NCBI GenBank assembly: GCA_902768365.1
Contig: CACXKV010000002.1
Span: 53,978-117,977, forward strand
Source of the DNA: an uncultured Bacteroidia bacterium
GTDB taxonomy: Bacteria > Bacteroidota > Bacteroidia > Bacteroidales > UBA932
Reading direction: 5' to 3'
DNA length: 64,000 nucleotides
The notes beneath the pieces are model-generated. The model was not told the DNA's origin. It saw nothing but the letters and a program-made list of their open reading frames with translations, and made no database searches. Positions 24,365 through 55,103 of the stretch are shown here, one piece after another. The position numbers and the translations under genes were made by a program. The first letter of the stretch is position 1. Every line of letters starts with the position of its first letter.

Positions 24365-25288
24365 TTACCGGGGAACTGCCGAATGAGCAAGTTTATGGGT
24401 GGGCCTACTGGGGTCTGGCAAATGGAGGAATTTTCGCATCTGGTCGGCAGAAGCATCCACCTTCGCATACAGTTTCCTGCTTATCTTAGGAATCAGTTCC
24501 GGAGGGAGCAAATCGTAATTGGGCCCTTCGTATCCTATTGCCCTGCTGTGTTTTATCAACTTATTATAAACTGAGTGATCGCCACAGTCATCATCCAGAT
24601 CATATTCATTTCCAGCAATATTCTCCACTACATCCAAAGCCTTGTCAAAAGAACCGAATATTTCCTCCAACTCATCGTAGCTCAAGAAGTTATACTTACA
24701 GACAATATAATCGATCACTTGCTGTTTTTCTTCAGGAGTCAGGCCGGTAAAGATTCTTCTCAAAGTCGCATAGCCCAGGTATTTCCCCTCTCTAAAAAAG
24801 ATATCGACAACCTTTAGGGCATCCCTTACTATATGCCGGCTGCGGCGCTTCACAAGTTTGTGCGAAAAAGGATTCGGATTATCCTTGTATGCAAGCAGAG
24901 TCCATCTGTTTTGTATCGCCAGCCTGCACATTTTTCCTGCCACTGGATTATTGAAGATATATGCAATACATGCAATTATCTTCTTCACCGCATGCTTCCC
25001 TGCCCGCCCGAATCTCCGATTGAAAACCGGCCCGGTTCGGTCGTATTCCGTATTGTACTCCCGGCTGAATATAGTAGCCAAGCGTATCTGAAATTTCTTT
25101 AGATCTGGCTCCGATATATCTTTGAACAAGGAGTGAATGTGATTGAACATGATGGAGAAAGCAAGGACGCATAATCCCATTTCCTTTACCAACACACTGT
25201 AAACAGTAAAAAACACCAGGCAATCCTCAACTCTGTAGAACAGCCCCCAGCCATTCCGGCCCTTCATGTACACATGTTTCGCTTTCAT
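24365..25288 (-). CDS. HUH/Y1 transposase-like nuclease (RAYT-like) 1
   Basis: KHVY..G..LF..ED, AFSIMFNHIH (HUH), AYIFNNPV (catalytic Tyr); AT-rich relative to its neighbours. Confidence 0.82.
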   Translation of the reverse strand: MKAKHVYMKGRNGWGLFYRVEDCLVFFTVYSVLVKEMGLCVLAFSIMFNHIHSLFKDISEPDLKKFQIRLATIFSREYNTEYDRTGPVFNRRFGRAGKHAVKKIIACIAYIFNNPVAGKMCRLAIQNRWTLLAYKDNPNPFSHKLVKRRSRHIVRDALKVVDIFFREGKYLGYATLRRIFTGLTPEEKQQVIDYIVCKYNFLSYDELEEIFGSFDKALDVVENIAGNEYDLDDDCGDHSVYNKLIKHSRAIGYEGPNYDLLPPELIPKISRKLYAKVDASADQMRKFLHLPDPSRPTHKLAHSAVPR

Positions 25289-41338: not shown

Positions 41339-42202
41339 TCAAGCCAGCACCGATTCCAATAATCCAATCTTAACATCCAAGACCCTGGCCAACTGTTTGA
41401 TCCCGGCACCGCGTGAACTCTTGAGTTTCTGCGCCAAAGCAATCCTCCTCGCCAGATCCATATTTGCAATCGTCACATCTTCCTCCTTCCTGGCCATCCG
41501 CCTCGCAACCACCCTCAGCTCATCGTCCGACAGGGCTTCGAAATTCGCCCGTGCACAGCTCTTATTCAAATCCAGAATCCGGTCCTTCTTCATATACATA
41601 AACGCAATATATGCTTTGATGCCTCCGAATATTTTCATAGCATCCTGCCACGCAACATAATGCTTTGCCAAAATCGCCCCGTCTTCGGAATACGTCCATA
41701 GCCCGGGCACTTCATAATGCATTCCCAAAGTGGCAACTCTGGACCTGCGGGACAATTTTCCTACCACGCCTATTCCAAAAGACTCCGGTGCAAAAAAGAG
41801 CGACGCTGAACTCCATTTGTAGAACCTGGGATCAAACTTAAATCCGGCTTCTATAGGATTACGATGTACATAGGCAATCACACTCATTACATCTTCCTTG
41901 CTCTCCAGCAAATCTGCAGATACGGCCACCTTTCGAATCTCATATGGCCTTTCGCGTACCCTATTGATTCGATGGAGTATCAGTTTCATCAGCTGCATAC
42001 CAAATTGCCGGCATTCATCCTCTGTTCCGTATAAAACAAGATGGAAATGCGAATTCATAAAAACAAACGCGATAATGCTACAAGCCAGTAATTGACTGCA
42101 ATAGGCCAGCAGGTTGATGGCCATTACAAACTCTTTGTCCGAAATCAAAAGTTTCGGAGTGTCTTCTCCAAACGAATAGACATGATAATATCCCTTATTC
42201 AT
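41339..42202 (-). CDS. HUH/Y1 transposase-like nuclease (RAYT-like) 2
   Basis: GYYHVY, AFVFMNSHFH (HUH), AYVHRNP, YKWSS, C-terminal HTH-like GIKQLARVL; AT-rich. Confidence 0.88.
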   Translation of the reverse strand: MNKGYYHVYSFGEDTPKLLISDKEFVMAINLLAYCSQLLACSIIAFVFMNSHFHLVLYGTEDECRQFGMQLMKLILHRINRVRERPYEIRKVAVSADLLESKEDVMSVIAYVHRNPIEAGFKFDPRFYKWSSASLFFAPESFGIGVVGKLSRRSRVATLGMHYEVPGLWTYSEDGAILAKHYVAWQDAMKIFGGIKAYIAFMYMKKDRILDLNKSCARANFEALSDDELRVVARRMARKEEDVTIANMDLARRIALAQKLKSSRGAGIKQLARVLDVKIGLLESVLA

Positions 42203-42414
42203 ATACTTAATGGCTATTGACCAGGCGGCTAATATGGGACTAAACATCGGAGCCAGCAAATAATCACGTCAAACATTTGCTTTAATATATGTTTCTGCTG
42301 ATGATTGCGTGTTTTAACACCACCATAAGAAAAATCTTATGCTTTGCCTAAACTTAAATCATATATGTTTCCATAGTGTGTTTTTTCTTATCTTTGTTGA
42401 CAAATGGCTGGATT

Positions 42415-43530
42415 ATGGTAGAATTTCCGGATAATAATTGGAAAGATTACGAGCTGCTGGATAGCGGCTGCGGCGAGAAACTTGAGAGGTTCGGCTCTGT
42501 CGTGACCGTCCGTCCTGAGCCTAAAGCGCTGTGGGACAGGAGTATGCCGGAAACGGAATGGCGGCGTCTCGCGCATTTTTCCTTCAAGCTGGCCAGCACC
42601 CAGAATGCCGGCCGCGATGCCGGAAAGGGCGGGAAGAATGCCGGTTCCGGAGCCATCGAGGACCGCGGCACCTGGGAGCGCCACAAGAAGGCGGATGACC
42701 AGTGGTATATACGCTACGCCAGCGCAACGGCCGGAACCAGCGCCGCGGTCGGGGCAGGCGCTGCCACCGGCCAACCCGACGGCCCGCAGTTCCGCCTGCG
42801 CCTGGGCCTCACCGCCTTCAAGCACGTAGGAGTCTTCCCCGAGCAAGCCCCGAACTGGGAGTTTATCTACCGGCAGGTGAAGAGGATAACAAAAGACACT
42901 CGGCCAAAGGTCCTTAATCTATTTGCATACACCGGGGGTGCATCGCTTGCAGCCAAGGCGGCCGGCGCAGACGTCACCCATCTCGACAGTATCAAGCAGG
43001 TGGTTACCTGGGCACGCGGGAATATGGAAGCCAGCGGCCTGGACGGCATACGCTGGATTGTGGAGGATGCGATGAAGTTTGTGCAGCGCGAGGAACGCCG
43101 CGGCAACCTCTATGACGGCATAATCCTGGATCCGCCAGCCTATGGGCACGGCCCGAATGGGGAGAAATGGAAGCTGGACGATAGCCTATTTGGCCTGCTC
43201 AGGAGCGTTTCACACATTCTTAAGCCGCAGAATTCCTTTATGGTGCTGAACCTCTATTCGAACGGCTATTCCGCCGCCTTGGGAGAAACTCTGGTGCGCG
43301 AAGCCTTCGGTTTGGGGACTAACGGACGGGCAATGCCCGTACTGTCGGCCCCTTGCGGGACAGCTTCCGGGGCCCCCGAAAAACTGCCGTTTTTGGGGGT
43401 GGACAGACGGGCCTCCCTGCCCGTCGCGGACGGACTTGGCGCGGACGGCCTGACGAGCGGCGAACTGGCCTTGAACGACCGTTTCGGCAAAGTCTTGCCT
43501 TTAAGTATTTACGTCCGGCTGGAACGATGA
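42415..43530 (+). CDS. class I SAM-dependent methyltransferase (RlmI/YwbD-like)
   Basis: DYELLDSG..EKLERFG, FKHVGVFPEQA, LNLFAYTGG, IILDPPAY. Confidence 0.9.
   Translation: MVEFPDNNWKDYELLDSGCGEKLERFGSVVTVRPEPKALWDRSMPETEWRRLAHFSFKLASTQNAGRDAGKGGKNAGSGAIEDRGTWERHKKADDQWYIRYASATAGTSAAVGAGAATGQPDGPQFRLRLGLTAFKHVGVFPEQAPNWEFIYRQVKRITKDTRPKVLNLFAYTGGASLAAKAAGADVTHLDSIKQVVTWARGNMEASGLDGIRWIVEDAMKFVQREERRGNLYDGIILDPPAYGHGPNGEKWKLDDSLFGLLRSVSHILKPQNSFMVLNLYSNGYSAALGETLVREAFGLGTNGRAMPVLSAPCGTASGAPEKLPFLGVDRRASLPVADGLGADGLTSGELALNDRFGKVLPLSIYVRLER
43323..43430. repeat. palindromic element family B with nested hairpin (in-frame in methyltransferase)
   Basis: CGGACGGGCAATGCCCGTACTG..CCCCTTGCGGGAC[~42 bp]AGACGGGCC..TGCCCGTCGCGGA. 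Confidence 0.88.
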
Positions 43531-43533
43531 TTT

Positions 43534-43726
43534 ATTCGTTACCACTAACCGGCTTGAAACGGCATATTATGGGAAAAAACCACCCAAATAGGGCGGTTTT
43601 TTACCATTTCTTGCGCTGTATTGCCGTTTTCTGGTTAAACGATTAAAACGTTTAGTCGCGGATAGCTGCGATGCCGGGGAGGTCTTTGCCTTCGATGGCC
43701 TCGAGCATTGCGCCGCCGCCGGTGGA
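43534..43726 (-). repeat. 193-bp inverted repeat arm (native pgk 3' end plus hairpin)
   Basis: Partner of 41143-41335. Confidence 0.95.
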
Positions 43727-44902
43727 AACGTAGCTGACCTTATCGGCATAACCCATCTTGGTAACGGCTGCAACGGAGTCGCCGCCGCCCACGAGGGTGT
43801 AAGCGCCATTAGCGGTGGCCTCTGCAAGATATTCTGCTATCTGCAGGGTTCCCTTTGCGAAGGTATCCATCTCGAACACACCCACGGGGCCGTTCCAGAG
43901 GATGGTCTTGGAACCAAGGATGATATCTTTCCAGACCTTGAGCGAAGCGGCGCCGGCATCCATACCTTCCCATCCTTCAGGGATCTCCATGGAAGGAACG
44001 GTCTTGTGTGCGGCATCGTTGCTGAATTCCTGGGCAACCACGGTCTCCACAGAAAAGGAGAGGTTCACGCCGAGTTCCTTGGCGCGGGCCATGATGTCGA
44101 GAGCCTGAGGGATGAGGTCGTCCTCATGCAGGGAGTTGCCTATGGATCCACCCATCGCCTTGATGAAGGTGTATCCCATTCCGCCGCCGATGATGAGGTT
44201 ATCTACCTTGGGGAGAAGGTTCTCCAGAACTGCGAGCTTGGAGGAAACCTTGCTGCCGCCGATGATGGCTGTGAAGGGGCGCTTGGCGTTCTTGAGCACG
44301 TTGTCGATGGCCTTGATCTCGCCTTCCATCAGGTAACCGAACATCTTGTCGTTGGGGAAGTACTCGGCGATCAGGGCGGTGGAGGCATGTGCGCGGTGTG
44401 CGGTGCCGAATGCATCGTTGATGTAGCAGTCTGCGTAGGATGCGAGCTTCTTGGTGAACTCCTTCTGGGAAGCCTTCACGGCCTTCTTGGCCTCGGCTTT
44501 CTCCTCGTCGGTGGCATCCTCTGCGAGCCCGCGGGGTTTGCCTTCTTCCTCGGCGTAGAAGCGGAGGTTTTCGAGAAGCAGGGCCTCGCCCGGTTTGAGG
44601 GCAGCAGCCTGCGCGTCGGCGGTCTGGCAGTCATCTGCAAACTGCACGGGAACTCCGAGGCATTCGCTCACATGGGCGACGATGTGCTTGAGGGAGAACT
44701 TTGGGTCAACCTTCTTGGGGCGTCCGAGGTGGCTCATGATAATCAGCGAGCCGCCGCCGGCGAGCACCTTTTTAAGAGTAGGGATTGCGCGACGGATGCG
44801 GGTGTCGTCGGTAATCTCGAAGTTTTCGTTAAGGGGAACATTGAAATCAACGCGGACAATAGCTTTTTTGCCGGTGAAATCATAAGAATCAATGTGTTGC
44901 AT
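43652..44902 (-). CDS. pgk: phosphoglycerate kinase
   Basis: [48 protein letters not shown]. Confidence 0.98.
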
Positions 44903-44976
44903 AATATTTTGTTGTGTCGAATTTTCCGGACGCAAAGTTAGCAAAAATATGGCAAATCCTTATTAACTTTGCGAGT

Positions 44977-45528
44977 ATGAGAACGCATATTATCGCATTA
45001 ATTGCATTAGTCTGCACGCTTGCCTCCTGCGGCAAGAAACAGGAAGATCCGGTGAAAGCGGCTATTTCCAATAAGATTTCAGAACAGATAGGGGAAACAA
45101 GCAACATTTATTTCAGCTCTTTGGCCCTGGTGGATTCCACCACTTTCGGCGAAGAGATCGCCCGCCGACGCACCACTCTGGAAATCAGGCGTAAGCAGAA
45201 CCTGAAACTGGCCGGCCAGTACGAGGCGGCCGGGAAGGTAAAGAACGAAGCCGCCAAGAGGTCCGATGCCGCCAACGACCTCAAGCGCCTCGAAGGCCTT
45301 TCCGCCATCGAATCCCGCCTCGCCGCCAACGACTCCCTCGACGTGGTGGAAGCCTATATCTACAAGTTCTCTGGCAGCGCCCGCACCTACAAAGGCACCG
45401 TCAACTTCACCGACATGTTCGTAGCCATCACTCCCCAACACGAGGTGGTGGGGATGGATTATAAAAAGGAAGGCGCCCTGAAATCTGCAGGCCGCCTTAT
45501 CCCCGGTTACTCAACCCTCTTCGAATAG
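44977..45528 (+). CDS. hypothetical lipoprotein
   Basis: MRTHIIALIALVCTLASC lipobox; TAACTTTG promoter-like element just upstream. Confidence 0.75.
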   Translation: MRTHIIALIALVCTLASCGKKQEDPVKAAISNKISEQIGETSNIYFSSLALVDSTTFGEEIARRRTTLEIRRKQNLKLAGQYEAAGKVKNEAAKRSDAANDLKRLEGLSAIESRLAANDSLDVVEAYIYKFSGSARTYKGTVNFTDMFVAITPQHEVVGMDYKKEGALKSAGRLIPGYSTLFE

Positions 45529-46902
45529 GGCTGGAGCGGCGGAGGCACCCACTACCCGAACCGGCCGGCCGGCTGTGCGCACCAGCTTGGAAAGGTCATC
45601 CGCCTCAACATTCTCCAAGCGGACCACCGTAGTATCGTAAACCATCCCCTCCGTATCCAGCGCATGCAGCATGCGGATCTCGCTGCTGCCGATGCGCGAG
45701 TCGCGCAGGATGATACTGTCCACCGGCGTGCGGCTCTGGATGAGCGCGGGAATCTCGTTCAGCACCTGCACCCTCTCGAACACGATGTTGCTCTGCACGG
45801 GTATCTCCGCGTAAGGGTAGAAGCTGCGCGAGTACTGGTCGTGGTCGAAGTGCAGGCAGAGGGCCACCTTGCGCTTCTCCTCCAGCCGGATGTCCCGGAA
45901 GACCACGTTGCGCACGCCGCAGCTGTGGCAGATGTTCCGGTCCTGGCTCATGGTCCAGGTGATGCCGTCGGGGTACGTCACGGTGCCTTCGGTGTGCTCC
46001 GGGCGGCAGGTCGAGACGTAATTCACCTTCACCTTGGGGCCGTTGGAACGGTAGATGCGCCCACCGCACACAACCGCATCTCCCGAAGACTGGATGTCCA
46101 TCCCGGATTCCCAGTCACGCCAGCCGCCTGCCAGGATGCGGGCGAAAAAGCCGGTAGTGCCGTTGGCGGGGTCATCCAGGTCGACGCAGTCCTCGATGAG
46201 GCCGTTCTCTATCCAGCCGAGTTCCGGGTTGGAGGTGGTGTAGTCGTGGGCATTGAGGGCGATGGGATCGTCGTAGGTCTTGAAAACGCCATGCCTCACC
46301 ACAAAATCGCGCCCGGGCCCGAAGTGAACGGCGTCCTTAAGTCCCTCTATATGAACATTTTCCACCACTACGTTCTCGAAGGTGCAGATCTGGATGGCGA
46401 AGTCGTTCGGGGGCAGATCCAGGAAGGTGTAGCCATCCAGCACAAGGTTCCGCACATAGAAGAACCCCGTGTGGCAGCACATGCCCACGATCGTGGGGAT
46501 GTCTACCGGCCTGCCCTTGCCTGCATCAATGCCGTTGGCCTTCAGCTGAAGGCCGCGTATGCAGATGTTTTCGTCATACTCCCGGGTGAGGGCGCCGCGG
46601 TTCAGGAGGATGAATCGAGCCGCCACCCCCTCGGAATCCTCGGCACGGCTCAGAACGGCGCCCGGGACGAATTCGAGGTCGGTATCCGAATCCAGGTAGA
46701 TGGTGCGGCAGAGTTTGTACTCGCCCGGTTTACGCACCTTGATGCGCCCGCCGCCGTCCAGGCAGCGCTGGAAGGCCTCTGAGTTGGTTATTGCGTCATT
46801 CTCGGGAAGGAAGCCGAAGCTATCGGCGTACTTGGTGCGGGTGCAGGATGACAGGATGGCCATCAAAGTCGCTACAGCAATTATTATATAGAATCGTTTC
46901 AT
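45511..46902 (-). CDS. parallel beta-helix (pectin-lyase-like) lipoprotein
   Basis: Lipobox LSSC, NSEAFQRCLD, KDAVHFGPG..TYDDPIALN. Confidence 0.7.
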   Translation of the reverse strand: MKRFYIIIAVATLMAILSSCTRTKYADSFGFLPENDAITNSEAFQRCLDGGGRIKVRKPGEYKLCRTIYLDSDTDLEFVPGAVLSRAEDSEGVAARFILLNRGALTREYDENICIRGLQLKANGIDAGKGRPVDIPTIVGMCCHTGFFYVRNLVLDGYTFLDLPPNDFAIQICTFENVVVENVHIEGLKDAVHFGPGRDFVVRHGVFKTYDDPIALNAHDYTTSNPELGWIENGLIEDCVDLDDPANGTTGFFARILAGGWRDWESGMDIQSSGDAVVCGGRIYRSNGPKVKVNYVSTCRPEHTEGTVTYPDGITWTMSQDRNICHSCGVRNVVFRDIRLEEKRKVALCLHFDHDQYSRSFYPYAEIPVQSNIVFERVQVLNEIPALIQSRTPVDSIILRDSRIGSSEIRMLHALDTEGMVYDTTVVRLENVEADDLSKLVRTAGRPVRVVGASAAPALFEEG

Positions 46903-46906
46903 ATTA

Positions 46907-48058
46907 TCAGACTTCGCATTCCATTTCTATGAGCCAGCCGGGGCGGCAGACGCGGGCTTCGAGGATGATGCGGGGCGTGTCGGGGAAGCGGGATTGCATG
47001 TAGGCGTCCACCCGGGCATAATCGGAAATATCCCGCAGGTACACCACCCAGTACGGCACCCCGGCCGGGACGGTTTGCCATCCGCGAAAAGCAAAGGGCC
47101 CGTCCGTGTCCCGCAAGGGGAGCCCGGTACGGGCATTGCTTTTCCGCGTAATGCCTACGCACCCGTCCTGGCCGGATTCGGCGAGCAGGGCGGCGATGTT
47201 TTCCAACAGGCGGTCCGCCTGGGCGATCACATCTCCCTCGTGGAGGATGTGCCCGAGATGGTCGATGCTGGCTGTGCCGCTGATGTAGATGTGATCGGCA
47301 GAAGGACCCGCTACCTTGACCCCACGCTCAAACGCAACGCCATAATCGTGCGTCGGACTCAAATGCGAGAGGGCCTTGAGATAGGTCTTGTCTTCTTCGC
47401 GGATGCCTGGCTGAGTAAGGAAATCTATCGCCACCACGGCAGACCTGCATTCGTTGGCCCCGCCGATGCCTGTGCTGGCAATGTAGTGAGTATCAAAGCT
47501 TAAGCCCTCTTCGGCAAACACATCGTTACGCGCCTTCACCAGGCCGGCGTAGTTGGAATCGATGTCACGCACGTATATCCAGGTGCGGACGCAGTGGGTC
47601 TTGAGTTCAAGGCCCAGGGGCCTGATGATACCCAGATACTTATCGAACAGGAGCCGGCTCTGCTCATAGCTGGTCTTGCCGGCGGCTTCCTCTTCGGTCA
47701 GGCGCAGGCTGTGGAACAAATATTGGTCTGCTTCGGAAGATGTGCGCACGAGTGCAGCGATGCGGTTGCCATCCAGCGGCGGCTGTTCGACTATAGAAAC
47801 GCTGTCCCCTCCGCGACGGGCAAAGGGCCCGTCTGTGACCCACAAGGGGCCGCCAGTACGGGCATTGCCCGTCCGTAAGGCCTCCCGCAGTGCGACGGCC
47901 TGGTTCTGCGCATCGCTGAGGAAGAATCGCACATACACCGGACTGCGCCCGGCCACCTTTTCCGCGGCCAGGAACTCCCCCATCTGCCTGACAACACTCT
48001 CCGACGCCCCGGCAAAATCACCCGCCGCCTCCGGCTTAATAATCTTGTAATTATCCAT
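46907..48058 (-). CDS. Rid/YjgF-fold, chorismatase (FkbO/Hyg5)-like protein
   Basis: RTWIYV, ASTGIG, VAFERG, ISGTASID, VCRPGWLIEME. Confidence 0.75.
   Translation of the reverse strand: MDNYKIIKPEAAGDFAGASESVVRQMGEFLAAEKVAGRSPVYVRFFLSDAQNQAVALREALRTGNARTGGPLWVTDGPFARRGGDSVSIVEQPPLDGNRIAALVRTSSEADQYLFHSLRLTEEEAAGKTSYEQSRLLFDKYLGIIRPLGLELKTHCVRTWIYVRDIDSNYAGLVKARNDVFAEEGLSFDTHYIASTGIGGANECRSAVVAIDFLTQPGIREEDKTYLKALSHLSPTHDYGVAFERGVKVAGPSADHIYISGTASIDHLGHILHEGDVIAQADRLLENIAALLAESGQDGCVGITRKSNARTGLPLRDTDGPFAFRGWQTVPAGVPYWVVYLRDISDYARVDAYMQSRFPDTPRIILEARVCRPGWLIEMECEV
47081..47146. repeat. palindromic element family B (66 bp, in-frame)
   Basis: GAAAAGCAAAGGGCCCGT..ACGGGCATTGCTTTTC. Confidence 0.9.
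47810..47875. repeat. palindromic element family B (66 bp, in-frame)
   Basis: GACGGGCAAAGGGCCCGT..ACGGGCATTGCCCGTC. Confidence 0.9.
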
Positions 48059-48113
48059 TTCTACAAAGATACACAAATCCCCAAACTCTGTCAATCCTCA
48101 ATAATTATGAAAT

Positions 48114-48225
48114 GCCGTGGGTGGCTATATGCTTAGCTATCAATGATTTACCAAAAACAGGTCGGTTAAATTTGCCGACCTGTTTTCGATAAAGTATTAT
48201 AAATCAATATGTTAACTACAACGGC
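48114..48225. repeat. cruciform element / terminator
   Basis: GCCGT..ACGGC outer stem, AAAACAGGTCGG..CCGACCTGTTTT inner stem, two ..ATCA-N5-TTA boxes. Confidence 0.75.
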
Positions 48226-52782: not shown

Positions 52783-53742
52783 CTACTTCCTCCCGTATTT
52801 ACGATGATGGAACTTCATATCCAGCAGAGGCACCGCGGTGTTCATCAGCAGGATGGCGAACGACATACCCTCCGGATAGGACCCGAAGTAGCGTATCATC
52901 ATCACTATGAAACCTATGCCTATGCCGTAGATGACGCCTCCCCAGGTGCTCATGGGCGAGGTGACATAATCGGTTGCCATGAAGCAGGCACCGAGGATGA
53001 CACCGCCGGTGAGAAGGTTGAAGAGGGGCCCTGTGTACTGTGCGGGATCCGCCATGTGGAACACGAACGCGACCAGAGCCACGGTGGCGAAGATGCTGAG
53101 GGTGATCCAGGGCTTGATGACCTTGCGCACCAGCAGGTAGACCCAGCCGGCGAGAAGCGCCAGGGCGGAAATTTCACCTGCGGAACCTCCCACATTGTGG
53201 AAGAGGGTCTGCAGGGAAACGAGCTTATCGGCCTCCAGGGCGCCCAGGATGGGCACCTGGCCCAACAGGGTGGCTCCGGAGAAGGCATCCACATTGGAGA
53301 TGAATCCTGCGGGAACCGTCCAGTCGGTCATATAGGTGGGGAAGGACACGAGCAGGAACACGCGGCCCACCAGGGCGGGGTTCCAGATGTTCTGCCCAAT
53401 GCCTCCGAAGGTCATCTTGGCAACCGCGATGGCGATGACAGCGCCTATAAACACCACCCACAGGGGGCAGGTCGGAGGGAGGTTCATGGCCAGCAGCATG
53501 CCGGTGACTATTGCAGAAAGATCGCCCGTGGTAGAGGGCTTCTTGAGCATGTACTTGGTGATGGCCCATTCCAGCACGACGCAGGACGCCACGCTGAACG
53601 CCATGATGGCGATTTCGCTCAGCCCGTAGAAGAGGAACGACACGATGGCCGCAGGGCAGAGGGCGATTATCACATCCAGCATCAGCCTCTTGGTGCTGAC
53701 AGCCGCATGTATGTGGGGATTAGGTGATACTATATATGCCAT
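52783..53742 (-). CDS. rnfD: Rnf complex subunit D
   Basis: FGGIGQNIWNPALVGR, SGAT, FMATDYVTSP. Confidence 0.95.
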   Translation of the reverse strand: MAYIVSPNPHIHAAVSTKRLMLDVIIALCPAAIVSFLFYGLSEIAIMAFSVASCVVLEWAITKYMLKKPSTTGDLSAIVTGMLLAMNLPPTCPLWVVFIGAVIAIAVAKMTFGGIGQNIWNPALVGRVFLLVSFPTYMTDWTVPAGFISNVDAFSGATLLGQVPILGALEADKLVSLQTLFHNVGGSAGEISALALLAGWVYLLVRKVIKPWITLSIFATVALVAFVFHMADPAQYTGPLFNLLTGGVILGACFMATDYVTSPMSTWGGVIYGIGIGFIVMMIRYFGSYPEGMSFAILLMNTAVPLLDMKFHHRKYGRK

Positions 53743-53747
53743 GATTC

Positions 53748-55103
53748 TTACTTTTTAGCTGCCGCTGCACGGGCGCGGATGGCGGCCATGGCCATGCCTT
53801 TGGCCTGGCGGACGTGGTCCAGAAGAGGGATGTATGCAGGGCAGCTGTAGAGGCAGCAGCCGCATTCGATGCAGTCCTGGGCGGCATTTGCCTCGAGGCC
53901 CTCGACATCTCCCGCAAAATAGAGCTTGCGGAGGAGGAAGGGCTCCAGGCCCATGGGGCAGGCCTGCGAGCAGCGCCCGCAACGTATGCACATGGATTCC
54001 TGTCCGCGCTTGGTGGATTCTTCTGTGAGATAGAGTATGGATGATGACCCCTTGACGGTGGCGGCATCCAGATTGGCGATGGCGCGACCCATCATGGGGC
54101 CGCCGCTGATAAGCTTCGCAGCTCCATCGGGCACTCCCCCGGCATACGCGGCTATGTAGCTGAGCGGCATGCCGATGCGGAAGAGGTAGTTGTGCATCTT
54201 TTCCACAGGCAGGCAGTTGCCGGTGATGGTCAGAGTGTTGGTGATGAGAGGCTTGTTCTTCTGCACGGCCTCATAGACGGCAAGCGAGGTGGCCACGTTC
54301 TGAACCACGGCGCCCACGCTGATGGGCAGGCCGCCGGAACCGACCTCGCGGTGCATCACAGCCTGTATCAGCTGCTTCTCGCCGCCCTGCGGATACTTCT
54401 TCTTGAGAGGAAGCACCTCGATGTTGTAGGGCAGCTCGGAAACGGCCTTGCGCATGGCCTCGATGGCCTCGGGCTTGTTCTCCTCGATGCCGATGACGGT
54501 GCGGCATCCGCCCAGCACCTTCTGCATGATTGCCGCGCCCACCACTATCTCTTTGGTGCGCTCCAGCATGATGCGGTAGTCGCTGGTGAGGTAGGGTTCG
54601 CACTCCGCGCCGTTCAGGATCAGGCACTCGGCCTTGCTGCCGGGGGCGGGGTTAAGTTTCACATGGGTGGGGAAGGTTGCTCCGCCGAGCCCCACCACGC
54701 CGCAGGCCTTGATCCGGTCGAGGATGGCCTGGCGGTCTTCGGGAATGCCGAGAACCAGGGTTTCGGAAAGATCCACGCCCTCTACCCATTCATCTCCCTC
54801 GACGGCGATTTCGATATGGGTTACGTTGTTTCCTGCCAGATCCTTGCGGGGGCCTATGGATTTCACCGTGCCGGCCGCAGGTGAATGCACGAAGGCGGAG
54901 ATGAATCCGCCGGGTTCGGCGAGCACCTGCCCGGTCTTCACCTTGTCGCCTACTGCCACTATGGGTTTGGCAGGCGCTCCAAGATGCTGGGCCATAGATA
55001 CATACAAGGTCTCAGGCAGAGGCAATACCTCGATAGCGCATCCACGCGCCAATTTAGCATCGTCCGGATGGACTCCGCCGATCGAAAACGTTATCTTACT
55101 CAT
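53748..55103 (-). CDS. rnfC: Rnf complex subunit C
   Basis: GLGGATFPTHVK, NGAECEPYLT, YPQGGEKQLI, two 4Fe-4S motifs. Confidence 0.95.
   Translation of the reverse strand: MSKITFSIGGVHPDDAKLARGCAIEVLPLPETLYVSMAQHLGAPAKPIVAVGDKVKTGQVLAEPGGFISAFVHSPAAGTVKSIGPRKDLAGNNVTHIEIAVEGDEWVEGVDLSETLVLGIPEDRQAILDRIKACGVVGLGGATFPTHVKLNPAPGSKAECLILNGAECEPYLTSDYRIMLERTKEIVVGAAIMQKVLGGCRTVIGIEENKPEAIEAMRKAVSELPYNIEVLPLKKKYPQGGEKQLIQAVMHREVGSGGLPISVGAVVQNVATSLAVYEAVQKNKPLITNTLTITGNCLPVEKMHNYLFRIGMPLSYIAAYAGGVPDGAAKLISGGPMMGRAIANLDAATVKGSSSILYLTEESTKRGQESMCIRCGRCSQACPMGLEPFLLRKLYFAGDVEGLEANAAQDCIECGCCLYSCPAYIPLLDHVRQAKGMAMAAIRARAAAAKK

Follow-up and report, generated by a model that had tools for sequence, protein, structure and literature searches.

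REPs are extragenic elements of 20-40 nt, tagged with GTAG (or CGTC), that flank a cognate RAYT gene. Bacterial MITEs with intragenic copies include Correia, Nezha and Chunjie. ERIC/RU elements are likewise MITEs of bacteria with intragenic copies (Delihas 2007, PMC2759123). Rickettsia palindromic elements (RPEs; Ogata et al. 2000, 2002), as described in PMC10969869 and PMC3733652, are roughly 100-150 nt long and about half of them are intergenic; a CGTC end tag is reported in PMC3733652. RPEs are named as the exceptional case of in-frame palindromes in a 2024 review (PMC10969869).

Here, a family of palindromic repeats, Family B, is described from a 64-kb stretch of DNA, referred to as the window, of a 2-Mb Bacteroidales genome (G000). 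An initial annotation of the window had proposed a non-autonomous, RPE-like hairpin element that inserts extra loops into the proteins of a Bacteroidales lineage. The core of that reading is supported: with a probability of roughly 0.8, Family B is selfish DNA, a non-autonomous palindromic element comparable in kind to RPEs. Literature searches retrieved no description of such an element in Bacteroidota.

Results

Three copies of Family B were found in the window upon re-checking of the sequence, at the positions given by the initial annotation. The copies, their host genes and an unoccupied site are as follows.

42376..43530, plus strand: host gene 2, SAM-dependent methyltransferase (PF10672), carrying copy C
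43323..43436, minus strand: Family B copy C, a composite of 114 nt
43358..43406, unstranded: nested 48-nt hairpin, core CCCCCAAAAACGGCAGTTTTTCGGGGG, within the loop of copy C
46907..48094, minus strand: host gene 1, Rid/L-PSP plus FkbO-N-like protein (Pfam), carrying copies A and B
47061..47175, unstranded: extended unit of copy A, outer arms around spacer, core and tail
47081..47146, plus strand: Family B copy A, 66-nt palindromic core with AAAAG-type outer stem
47810..47875, plus strand: Family B copy B, 66-nt core with ACGGG-type stem
53733..53755, unstranded: unoccupied Family B site in the source genome, at the C-terminus of gene 53748-55103 (minus strand); filled in MAG RUG257 (L111)

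Coordinates and length of copies A and B, both within the Rid-like open reading frame, were confirmed. The third copy is indeed present in the methyltransferase gene, but its end had been placed at 43430 and its true extent is 43323-43436. Both copies in the Rid-like protein are read on the minus strand: copy A gives RKSNARTGLPLRDTDGPFAFRG close to its C-terminus and copy B gives RTGNARTGGPLWVTDGPFARRG between helix 62-75 and strand 99-103. In the methyltransferase, copy C is read on the plus strand as GRAMPVLSAPCG...DRRASLPVADG and lies in the C-terminal region. The outer arms of copy A are 13 nt each, CCGGCCGGGACGG (47061-47073) and CCGTCCTGGCCGG (47163-47175). Copy C is made up of a 66-nt core and the 48-nt hairpin nested in the loop of that core; the same composite was found at two further, unrelated sites, so core and nested hairpin move together. 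The 15-nt core pattern gave 6 matches against 0.17 expected from shuffles, and the hairpin fold of each window copy had z = -3.3 to -3.8.

A core length of exactly 66 nt (22 codons) is nearly invariant, being found for instance in 84 of 86 metagenome copies. The 66 bp reported earlier correspond to this core and not to the whole element, of which about 80 nt are conserved (flanks GCC[A/C] 5' and [A/C]AGGCCnnCG 3'), often with a copy-specific outer stem. Outer stem variants GAAAAGCAA/TTGCTTTTC and GACGGGCAA/TTGCCCGTC had been quoted correctly as covarying. Among 15 genomic copies, changes on both sides were found in 13 of 22 stem pairs, 98.2% of cells were paired and only 3 cells were G.U; the observed covariation values were reached by 0 of 500 shuffles. 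Judging from these alignments, in which covariation is almost only Watson-Crick, Family B is kept as a DNA palindrome. The GTAG tag is not in the consensus. CGTC is present only in copies with the ACGGG-type stem and is replaced in the AAAAG, AGAAG and AGGAG types.

Five of the six frame and orientation combinations are used by Family B genome-wide, in agreement with the earlier claim that the hairpin, not the peptide, is conserved. NARTG..DGPFA and GRAMPVLSAPCG, for instance, are two phases of one element strand. A repeat at the peptide level was ruled out, as one DNA element read in five frames yields unrelated peptides. Among 57 unique-site copies, 77% were stop-free in all six frames, versus 10%, 31% and 3% in three nulls.

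Host gene 1 has an open frame of 395 aa (383 aa from the called start), and the baseline of its family is 310-335 aa. Overall, hosts include PurL, MiaA, MsrA, MetRS, GH3, AtpG (ATP synthase gamma), Mur ligases, MurB, radical SAM, RsmE, TruA, MFS and MetK. These are intact core genes, functionally unrelated to each other, which speaks against the possibility, named in the initial annotation, that the hosts are pseudogenes. Loop placement was checked with an AlphaFold2 model of the Rid-like host (pTM 0.82), as the initial annotation had proposed; both inserts had pLDDT below 50-70 and formed coil between confident secondary-structure elements. The MetRS copy sits in an interdomain linker. The one modelled host, the Rid-like protein, suggests that Family B inserts occupy tolerated loop positions. 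All interior copies tested fall in long ORFs; 97% of random positions also pass this lenient open-frame test (P = 0.13), and thus no targeting of genes is shown for Family B.

In the source genome, which is 88% complete, 16 full or near-full Family B copies, 3 fragments and 2 sister-family copies were found (17 matches by nhmmer, 16 strong matches by CM). All genomes compared are MAGs. A scan of all GTDB yielded 77 loci in about 15 MAGs of related rumen Bacteroidales, a further 92 copies were counted in such MAGs, and at least 99 copies were found on metagenome contigs (at least 120 metagenome stretches), so that the proposed search for further copies, genome-wide and in relatives, gave many. 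A CM search of 24+16 relatives and a pattern search of 400 family genomes (55 same-genus) returned no Family B because those samples missed the bearer subclade; with about 15 other bearers in the all-GTDB scan, a species-specific element was ruled out. The Rfam search gave only a sub-threshold chance match. A MetRS tree places the bearers in a single clade (support 100/100). As far as these assemblies tell, copies of Family B have accumulated within a single tight group of rumen Bacteroidales and lie inside intact housekeeping genes, where each would be read through in the frame set by its landing position. The tree has no resolution within the bearer clade and therefore does not separate the order of gain and loss, or re-insertion from in-situ change.

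In close relatives, Family B sites were found empty, filled, trimmed, nested and flipped. The MetK site is empty in G000 and 5 outgroups and carries 26 additional aa in 4 MAGs. At MetRS, the site is empty in G440 and G445 and 24-nt remnants were also seen; sampled congeners had given no clean empty sites for MetRS and AtpG, with other variable sequence there, and both were settled with closer MAGs. The Rid C-terminal site (copy A) is empty in the G440 orthologue and the segment is not in distant homologues; five sampled congeners had no orthologue of the Rid-like host. At the site of copy B, an RTGNA footprint was found in P0014 and P0047 and nothing in P0082 and P0105, and P0014 has 63-nt deletions between direct repeats. 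Six close relatives have an empty methyltransferase site (copy C), and in three others this site holds 1-3 copies in tandem. G000 itself lacks the element at 8 or more further sites, and some sites are occupied in several species. Alignment of orthologues, suggested earlier as a way to find empty alleles, thus gave outgroup and distant homologues without Family B segments. Variation at shared sites between empty, filled, trimmed, nested and flipped states points to Family B as DNA with present or recent mobility, as opposed to a protein motif, mobility being read here from presence and absence among species-level relatives.

Junctions vary, with filled/empty length differences of 57-114 nt, and are inexact, with host bases replaced. 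Target-site duplication was not detected, direct repeats at the junctions being no longer than in mismatched-pair controls. A GCC/GGCC-like motif was the only one recurring on both junction sides.

About half of the Family B copies have a copy-specific outer stem that is partly host coding sequence. The outer arms lie at fixed offsets, and their best inverted repeat averages 10 nt (6.8 and 7.1 for controls). Evidence for copying of arms comes from three sites: at C1:299727 and at the Rid C-terminal site, host sequence makes up one arm and a new inverted copy the other, and at MetK the outer stem was perfected. In the close relative P0005, the extended unit of copy A (~116 nt) is inverted in place; identity over the 116-nt segment is 89.7% when it is reverse-complemented, and its flanks align directly at 96-97%. 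Pre-existing target hairpins were rejected as a general rule, empty G000 sites having a mean best inverted repeat of 7.5 nt versus 7.0 nt for random sites. Documented features of Family B thus comprise a six-frame stop-free core, host-derived copy-specific arms, in-place inversion and nested composites.

Discussion

Ten divergent HUH/Y1-like genes, encoding about 300 aa, are present in G000. The two in the window had been put forward as possible mobilisers of the element.

24368..25288, minus strand: HUH/Y1-like (RAYT-like) gene 1, with its own hairpin repeat on both sides, unrelated to Family B
41342..42259, minus strand: HUH/Y1-like gene 2, lying about 1.1 kb from copy C and bearing the motifs NSHFHLV and YVHRNP

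Both genes are real, the second being recognised only via its paralogues (no match to PF01797), but flank and proximity evidence does not support their role as mobilisers. It is improbable that Family B is a REP/REPIN-like or IS200/IS605-type palindrome moved as ssDNA by an HUH/Y1 nuclease in trans, even though a 2-Mb genome with ten such genes, the strong hairpin, the 5' GCC[A/C] and the lack of a clear target duplication, as in IS200/IS605-type insertion, would fit. Two copies lie 1.1-1.3 kb from Y1-like genes, versus 0.38 expected (P = 0.054, not significant), and Y1-like genes occur near copies at a few other loci; these neighbouring genes, however, collapse to about three orthologous neighbourhoods, close to chance. 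Flanks were read for eight of the genes, and each of these is flanked by different hairpins of its own; gene 2 has no Family B sequence in its flanks, and the surrounding ~1 kb is free of Family B copies at all ten loci. A REPtron-like arrangement would make up a few percent of loci, and a Y1 gene bracketed by Family B was found at none of about 190 copies in ~1.1 Mb of MAG and metagenome loci. The missing GTAG tag also counts against such a nuclease, and inexact, host-base-replacing junctions are unlike the precise peel-and-paste reaction. Derivation from an IS by internal deletion, with movement by an IS transposase that binds the terminal inverted repeats, is unlikely as well. The size, terminal inverted symmetry, dispersed multi-copy pattern and lineage restriction of Family B are those of a classical MITE, and a parent IS might be absent or unassembled, assembled IS copies being commonly missing from MAGs such as the 88% complete G000. 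Against this, no longer element with the same ends was found among about 210 copies and their 8-15-kb surroundings, and partial matches were truncated copies inside genes, not IS ends. The junctions have neither direct repeats beyond control length nor a constant length, and, where a MITE would have filler between two TIRs, Family B is palindromic and structured throughout, its inner and outer stems both covarying.

Retention of the inserts for some benefit to the host, whether from the protein loops or from DNA/RNA hairpins tuning transcription, translation or mRNA stability, is very unlikely. Core length and sequence are strongly conserved while the host genes diverge, several species can share an occupied site, and different element families are found at the same protein sites, all of which would fit a beneficial insert. 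Yet the peptides from the five frames are unrelated, close relatives whose genes are intact freely show the sites empty, trimmed or flipped, the hosts have no function in common and the inserts are predicted to be disordered. Covariation restricted to Watson-Crick pairs, with almost no G.U, likewise argues for DNA and not for a selected RNA structure.

A selfish palindromic DNA element is thus the preferred reading. Its persistence within genes may follow from a master sequence that is stop-free in six frames and a multiple of three in length, and from the Gly/Pro/Ala-rich, flexible peptide that it encodes, with survival only in loops and linkers. As to its spread, our best guess, held tentatively and at somewhat less than even odds, is template switching at the hairpin during replication or repair, with no dedicated transposase. 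Template switching would give inexact junctions with short GCC/GGCC homologies and few host bases replaced, outer arms copied in inverted orientation from the host flank, and in-place inversion; a mutation in one arm would automatically be mirrored to the other. Such switching would account for the local behaviour (arms, inversion and covariation), seeding at a distant locus being conjecture, and the conserved 5' GCC[A/C] would suit a sequence-specific enzyme equally well. It is possible, though doubtful, that Family B and its sister families form a class of coding-region palindromes that spread through hairpin template switching in this transposase-free manner, taking their outer stem from host codons, flipping in place and mirroring mutations between arms. 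If so, gut and rumen Bacteroidales would keep gaining new loops in their essential proteins from these elements throughout the lineage.

Selfish palindromes lying in frame within essential genes have been regarded as peculiar to Rickettsia; such behaviour is now documented in abundant, free-living rumen Bacteroidales. With hundreds of metagenomic copies, these elements are tractable by population genomics and metaproteomics, and the host-derived outer arms and in-place inversion offer handles for testing a transposase-free mechanism. The findings bear on the acquisition of protein loops and on the survival and evolution of DNA palindromes inside genes. They also raise an issue for annotation, as Family B inserts lengthen core proteins and split homology matches.

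Comparison with known systems

IS200/IS605-type elements insert on the 3' side of a short conserved motif, which is not duplicated, and depend on a TnpA (Y1) enzyme. In Family B a conserved GCC[A/C] lies 5' of the core and no duplication is visible, but the junctions are inexact and no cognate Y1 gene was found. Like bacterial MITEs, it is a small non-autonomous repeat, and occasional in-frame fusions with host ORFs are known there; intragenic copies, however, are exceptional in MITEs and the rule in Family B, and MITEs have TIRs and target duplications linked to a parent IS, whereas for Family B no duplication was found, nor a parent IS among about 210 copies and their surroundings. REPs and REPINs are also short, GC-rich, multi-copy palindromes, and the source genome has many RAYT-like HUH/Y1 proteins flanked by hairpins; Family B differs in being intragenic, longer and untagged and in flanking no Y1 gene.

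The closest likeness is to RPEs. Both are dispersed, hairpin-forming palindromes lying in frame in unrelated, functional and often essential genes, both add a peptide at tolerated positions (predicted for Family B), and both are limited to one lineage and have no known transposase. Family B comes from another phylum, from free-living or commensal rumen Bacteroidales, whereas the host of RPEs is an obligate intracellular bacterium. Its core is shorter (66 nt, with ~80 nt conserved, versus roughly 100-150 nt), every interior copy tested sits in a long open frame, compared with an intergenic location for about half of RPEs, and the CGTC end tag is not conserved. Compared by RPE descriptions and the CGTC tag, Family B, which is confined to Bacteroidales MAGs, is an analogue of RPEs and not a member of them.

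Copies in the window and their host genes

The initial annotation had described three repeats of a 66-nt palindromic hairpin element, Family B, two inside a Rid-type gene and one inside a methyltransferase gene. This observation was confirmed: all three copies were located where they had been placed, except that the methyltransferase copy really measures 114 nt, and Pfam matches and open frames agreed on both hosts.

Copies of Family B in the window and their host genes
42376-43530, plus strand: methyltransferase host, PF10672 SAM-methyltransferase frame
43323-43436: copy C, 114 nt, a 66-nt core whose loop contains a second, nested hairpin of 48 nt
46907-48094, minus strand: Rid-like host, 395-aa open frame with a Ribonuc_L-PSP match and a weak FkbO-N match (Pfam)
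47081-47146: copy A, 66 nt, inside the Rid-like open frame
47810-47875: copy B, 66 nt, inside the Rid-like open frame

Hairpin folds of the three copies gave z = −3.3 to −3.8 against their own shuffles, and the 15-nt core word of the family was matched 6 times in the window, versus 0.17 expected.

Family B in the genome and its structure

The window's own genome, G000 (1.97 Mb in 28 contigs, 55% G+C, 88% complete), was searched with an iterated nhmmer profile, yielding 17 significant Family B matches and two 5′ fragments, and with a covariance model trained on 15 copies, yielding 16 strong matches and two longer ones. The longer matches belong to a sister family that shares the scaffold but differs in its apical module. 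Its copies (C8:56287-56377 and C1:194907-194998, outside the window; about 86-92 nt) lie within open frames of 449 and 455 aa and share with Family B the CCGCG, the variable outer stem, the AAAGG/CATT boxes and the inner stem.

All Family B copies of the genome were found inside long open frames. Hosts identified by Pfam were PurL, MiaA, a PMSR protein, MetRS, a GH3 glycosidase, ATP synthase gamma, a THUMP-like methyltransferase, two Mur ligases, MurB, a radical SAM protein, RsmE (two copies), an MFS transporter (fragment) and TruA (fragment).

RNAalifold placed 22 pairs in the 15-copy alignment, 13 of them with two-sided changes, and 98.2% of cells were paired. Double-change cells numbered 49, versus 14.6 in shuffles (0 of 500 shuffles as high), and sliding the structure along the alignment reduced pairing to 30-50%. 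Because G·U occurs in just three cells, the symmetry belongs to double-stranded DNA, in which either strand folds, and not to an RNA. No Rfam family matched Family B. Copies face either way and fall in several phases relative to their hosts, and the use of five of the six frame combinations rules out a conserved peptide module. Together with the compensatory stem changes, this upholds the earlier claim that DNA and not peptide is kept. The favoured frame (SATGKGPV...GIARP) is used at 24 of 41 unambiguous unique sites; Gly, Pro and Ala make up 45% of the encoded peptides.

Distribution

Family B was not found by the covariance model in 24 same-genus and 16 same-order genomes, nor by an exact pattern of its invariant positions in 400 genomes of the family (55 same-genus). 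Applied to one genome per GTDB species, the same pattern returned 77 loci, confined, bar one probable chance match, to about 15 MAGs titled Bacteroidales or Bacteroidia. The bearer MAGs originate from the rumen of cattle, yak, buffalo, goat and sheep. Their MetRS identity to the window's genome was 91-100% (one 79%), versus 73-83% for sampled congeners, and in the MetRS tree the bearers formed one clade on a long branch with 100/100 support.

A metagenome scan recovered at least 120 stretches with Family B. Two independent samples held further copies, 92 in the MAGs and at least 99 in the metagenome. The exact 66-nt length was kept by 84 of the 86 full copies in the metagenome set and by nearly all full copies overall. 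Open frames of 150 aa or longer enclose all 69 interior copies of the metagenome set, a lenient test that 97% of random positions also pass, so gene targeting is not claimed, just a full absence of depletion from genes.

Extent, junctions and outer arms

Information content at 57 unique sites extended conservation past the 66-nt core, with GCC[A/C] at −4 to −1 and [A/C]A[G]GCCnnCG at +1 to +10. Filled-minus-empty differences ranged from 57 to 114 nt, all multiples of three, and equalled 84 nt (28 codons) in two clean cases; junctions were inexact, usually with a few host bases substituted.

Outside the conserved unit, about half of the copies are bordered by inverted repeats of 11-19 nt that differ from copy to copy and are arranged in two fixed geometries. 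The best inverted repeat averaged 10 nt, versus 6.8 and 7.1 nt in two controls, and truly empty G000 sites were generally without such repeats (7.5 versus 7.0 nt). At C1:299727 and at the C-terminal site of the Rid-like gene, conserved host coding sequence supplies one arm, and the other is a new inverted copy of it; at MetK both arms are host codons, the left one altered from GAT to CAG, which perfects the stem. Judged from the sequences of these three sites, outer arms would be formed from host DNA.

Alleles at orthologous sites

Aligning host genes to orthologues revealed empty alleles at the MetK, MetRS, Rid-like and methyltransferase sites. MetK is the cleanest case: G000 and five outgroup congeners are empty (...ADIRH-xxxx-PYLRPD...), and four clade MAGs carry 26 additional residues, element included, at the ADIRH/PYLRPD site. 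The MetRS linker is empty in two close relatives, holds copies with different, still complementary stems (AAAAG, AGAGG and ACGGG types) in three lineages, and retains 24-nt remnants after internal deletion in two. In one lineage an unrelated second palindrome of 93 nt (GGCAATGGCGGCCAC...GTGGCCGCCATTGAC; MetRS of MAG SRR873598_bin.64) adjoins the Family B copy directly 3′ and in frame. Several element families appear to be drawn to the same protein sites.

Other short segments were noted in these genes. MetRS of five congeners outside the clade has in common a linker segment, conserved as peptide over about 45 aa (AGxDHRxGE..NxYKEGEGxALHT), that is absent from the entire bearer clade, empty alleles too. 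A hairpin encoding VIPSEAKES lies in frame in ATP synthase gamma of G000 and in MetRS of RGIG2770, and looks like another short intragenic repeat family.

The Rid-like C-terminal site has no copy in the relative G440 or in homologues of 310-335 aa, the baseline length of the family. At the N-terminal site, a RTGNA footprint is left in two relatives' alleles (P0014 and P0047), with no copy farther out. Six relatives are empty at the methyltransferase site; in three others it is filled by a single copy or by up to three in tandem. G000 itself is empty at no fewer than eight sites that hold a copy in other MAGs, one of them at window 53733-53755. This last site is the C-terminal end of the minus-strand gene 53748-55103, where the copy in MAG RUG257 adds 38 codons to the tail. 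At G000 C9:7424-7488 an unrelated hairpin (CCGTATGG...CCATACGG) occupies the gene position at which MAG RUG10780 (L072:5547) carries Family B.

The nested-hairpin composite form recurs at three unrelated sites and therefore spreads as a unit. In P0005, a metagenomic Rid-like allele with 93% nucleotide identity over the gene, the C-terminal copy is reversed: a 116-nt segment bounded by a 13-nt inverted repeat aligns as reverse complement (89.7% identity) between directly aligning flanks (96-97%). In both orientations the site measures 147 nt between anchors and is in frame. These alleles show Family B to be a DNA palindrome in many copies which, at orthologous sites within intact genes, is gained and lost, shortened, nested and inverted. 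This supports the core of the initial interpretation, an in-frame hairpin DNA element.

Probable tolerance by host proteins

No stop was present in any of six frames in 44 of 57 unique-site copies (77%), versus 10% of composition shuffles, 31% of palindromic shuffles and 3% of genome windows. The Rid-like host was modelled with AlphaFold2 from a 55-sequence alignment (pTM 0.82). As expected for placement in loops, both inserts were predicted as low-confidence coil (residues 74-95, block means 50-69; residues 312-340, below 50), flanked by confidently predicted helices or strands. In MetRS the copy falls between the anticodon-binding domain and the tRNA-binding domain; in PurL it precedes the amidotransferase domain. 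A frame-restoring insertion is tolerable in a loop because it comprises 22 codons with a flexible, Gly/Pro-rich product. We infer that Family B is selfish DNA that persists through harmlessness in any frame; that it benefits the host is highly improbable.

Mobilisation and proposed mechanism

Mobilisation in trans by RAYT-like HUH nucleases had been suggested. Two such genes, with HUH and tyrosine motifs, are indeed present in the window:

24368-25288, minus strand: HUH/Y1-like gene
41342-42259, minus strand: HUH/Y1-like gene

They are two of ten such genes in G000, all divergent, about 300 aa long and weakly or not matched by PF01797, which detects only some of them. In G000, two Family B copies are less than 1.5 kb from a Y1-like gene versus 0.38 expected (P = 0.054), and the first kilobase or so around each of the ten genes is free of Family B. 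Flanks read for eight of the ten mostly showed a private hairpin repeat on each side and none resembling Family B. MAG and metagenome loci with about 190 copies (roughly 1.1 Mb in all) include no Y1-like gene bracketed by Family B, and the Y1-like genes standing 1-3 kb from a copy there come down to about three orthologous neighbourhoods. The REPtron-type arrangement by which REP/RAYT systems are defined is therefore lacking, and movement in trans by these nucleases is unlikely. An inverted repeat at window 48142-48198 (..AAAACAGGTCGG / CCGACCTGTTTT..) resembles the hairpins flanking the Y1-like gene C1:236872-237786 and may represent this flanking repeat in solo form. Mobilisation by an unseen parent IS is equally doubtful, since no longer element with Family B ends was seen among about 210 copies and direct repeats at junctions were at control level.

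Spread and change by replication or repair template switching at the hairpin is favoured, at a probability of roughly 40%. Template switching is a known process in quasipalindrome mutagenesis. A change in one arm would be copied to the other, which would account for the Watson-Crick-only covariation. Template switching could likewise extend the stem outward into host sequence, invert the element in place, and explain both deletions between short direct repeats and inexact junctions with GCC/GGCC homology. The weakest step is the arrival of a copy at a distant site, for which template switching alone is insufficient.

Comparison with known systems

REP/RAYT systems are defined by repeats outside genes that carry a GTAG tag and flank a RAYT gene; Family B has none of these features. 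Classical MITEs are defined by target duplication and a parent IS; Family B shows no target duplication, and no parent IS was seen among about 210 copies. Full-text literature searches found no description of in-frame palindromic elements in Bacteroidota, in line with the initial annotation. BrickBuilt of P. gingivalis, the sole Bacteroidota MITE named in a 2024 review, is strictly intergenic (PMC10969869). The same review singles out Rickettsia palindromic elements (RPE) as an unusual in-frame case (PMC10969869), and Di Nocera et al. treat RPEs together with intragenic REPs. RPEs are the closest analogue, and the likeness proposed at the outset holds for behaviour, as in-frame palindromes in intact genes, but not for family membership: Family B occurs in another phylum, is shorter and has no conserved CGTC tag. 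It is apparently an undescribed new family and, in its behaviour, a variant within an already known type of element.
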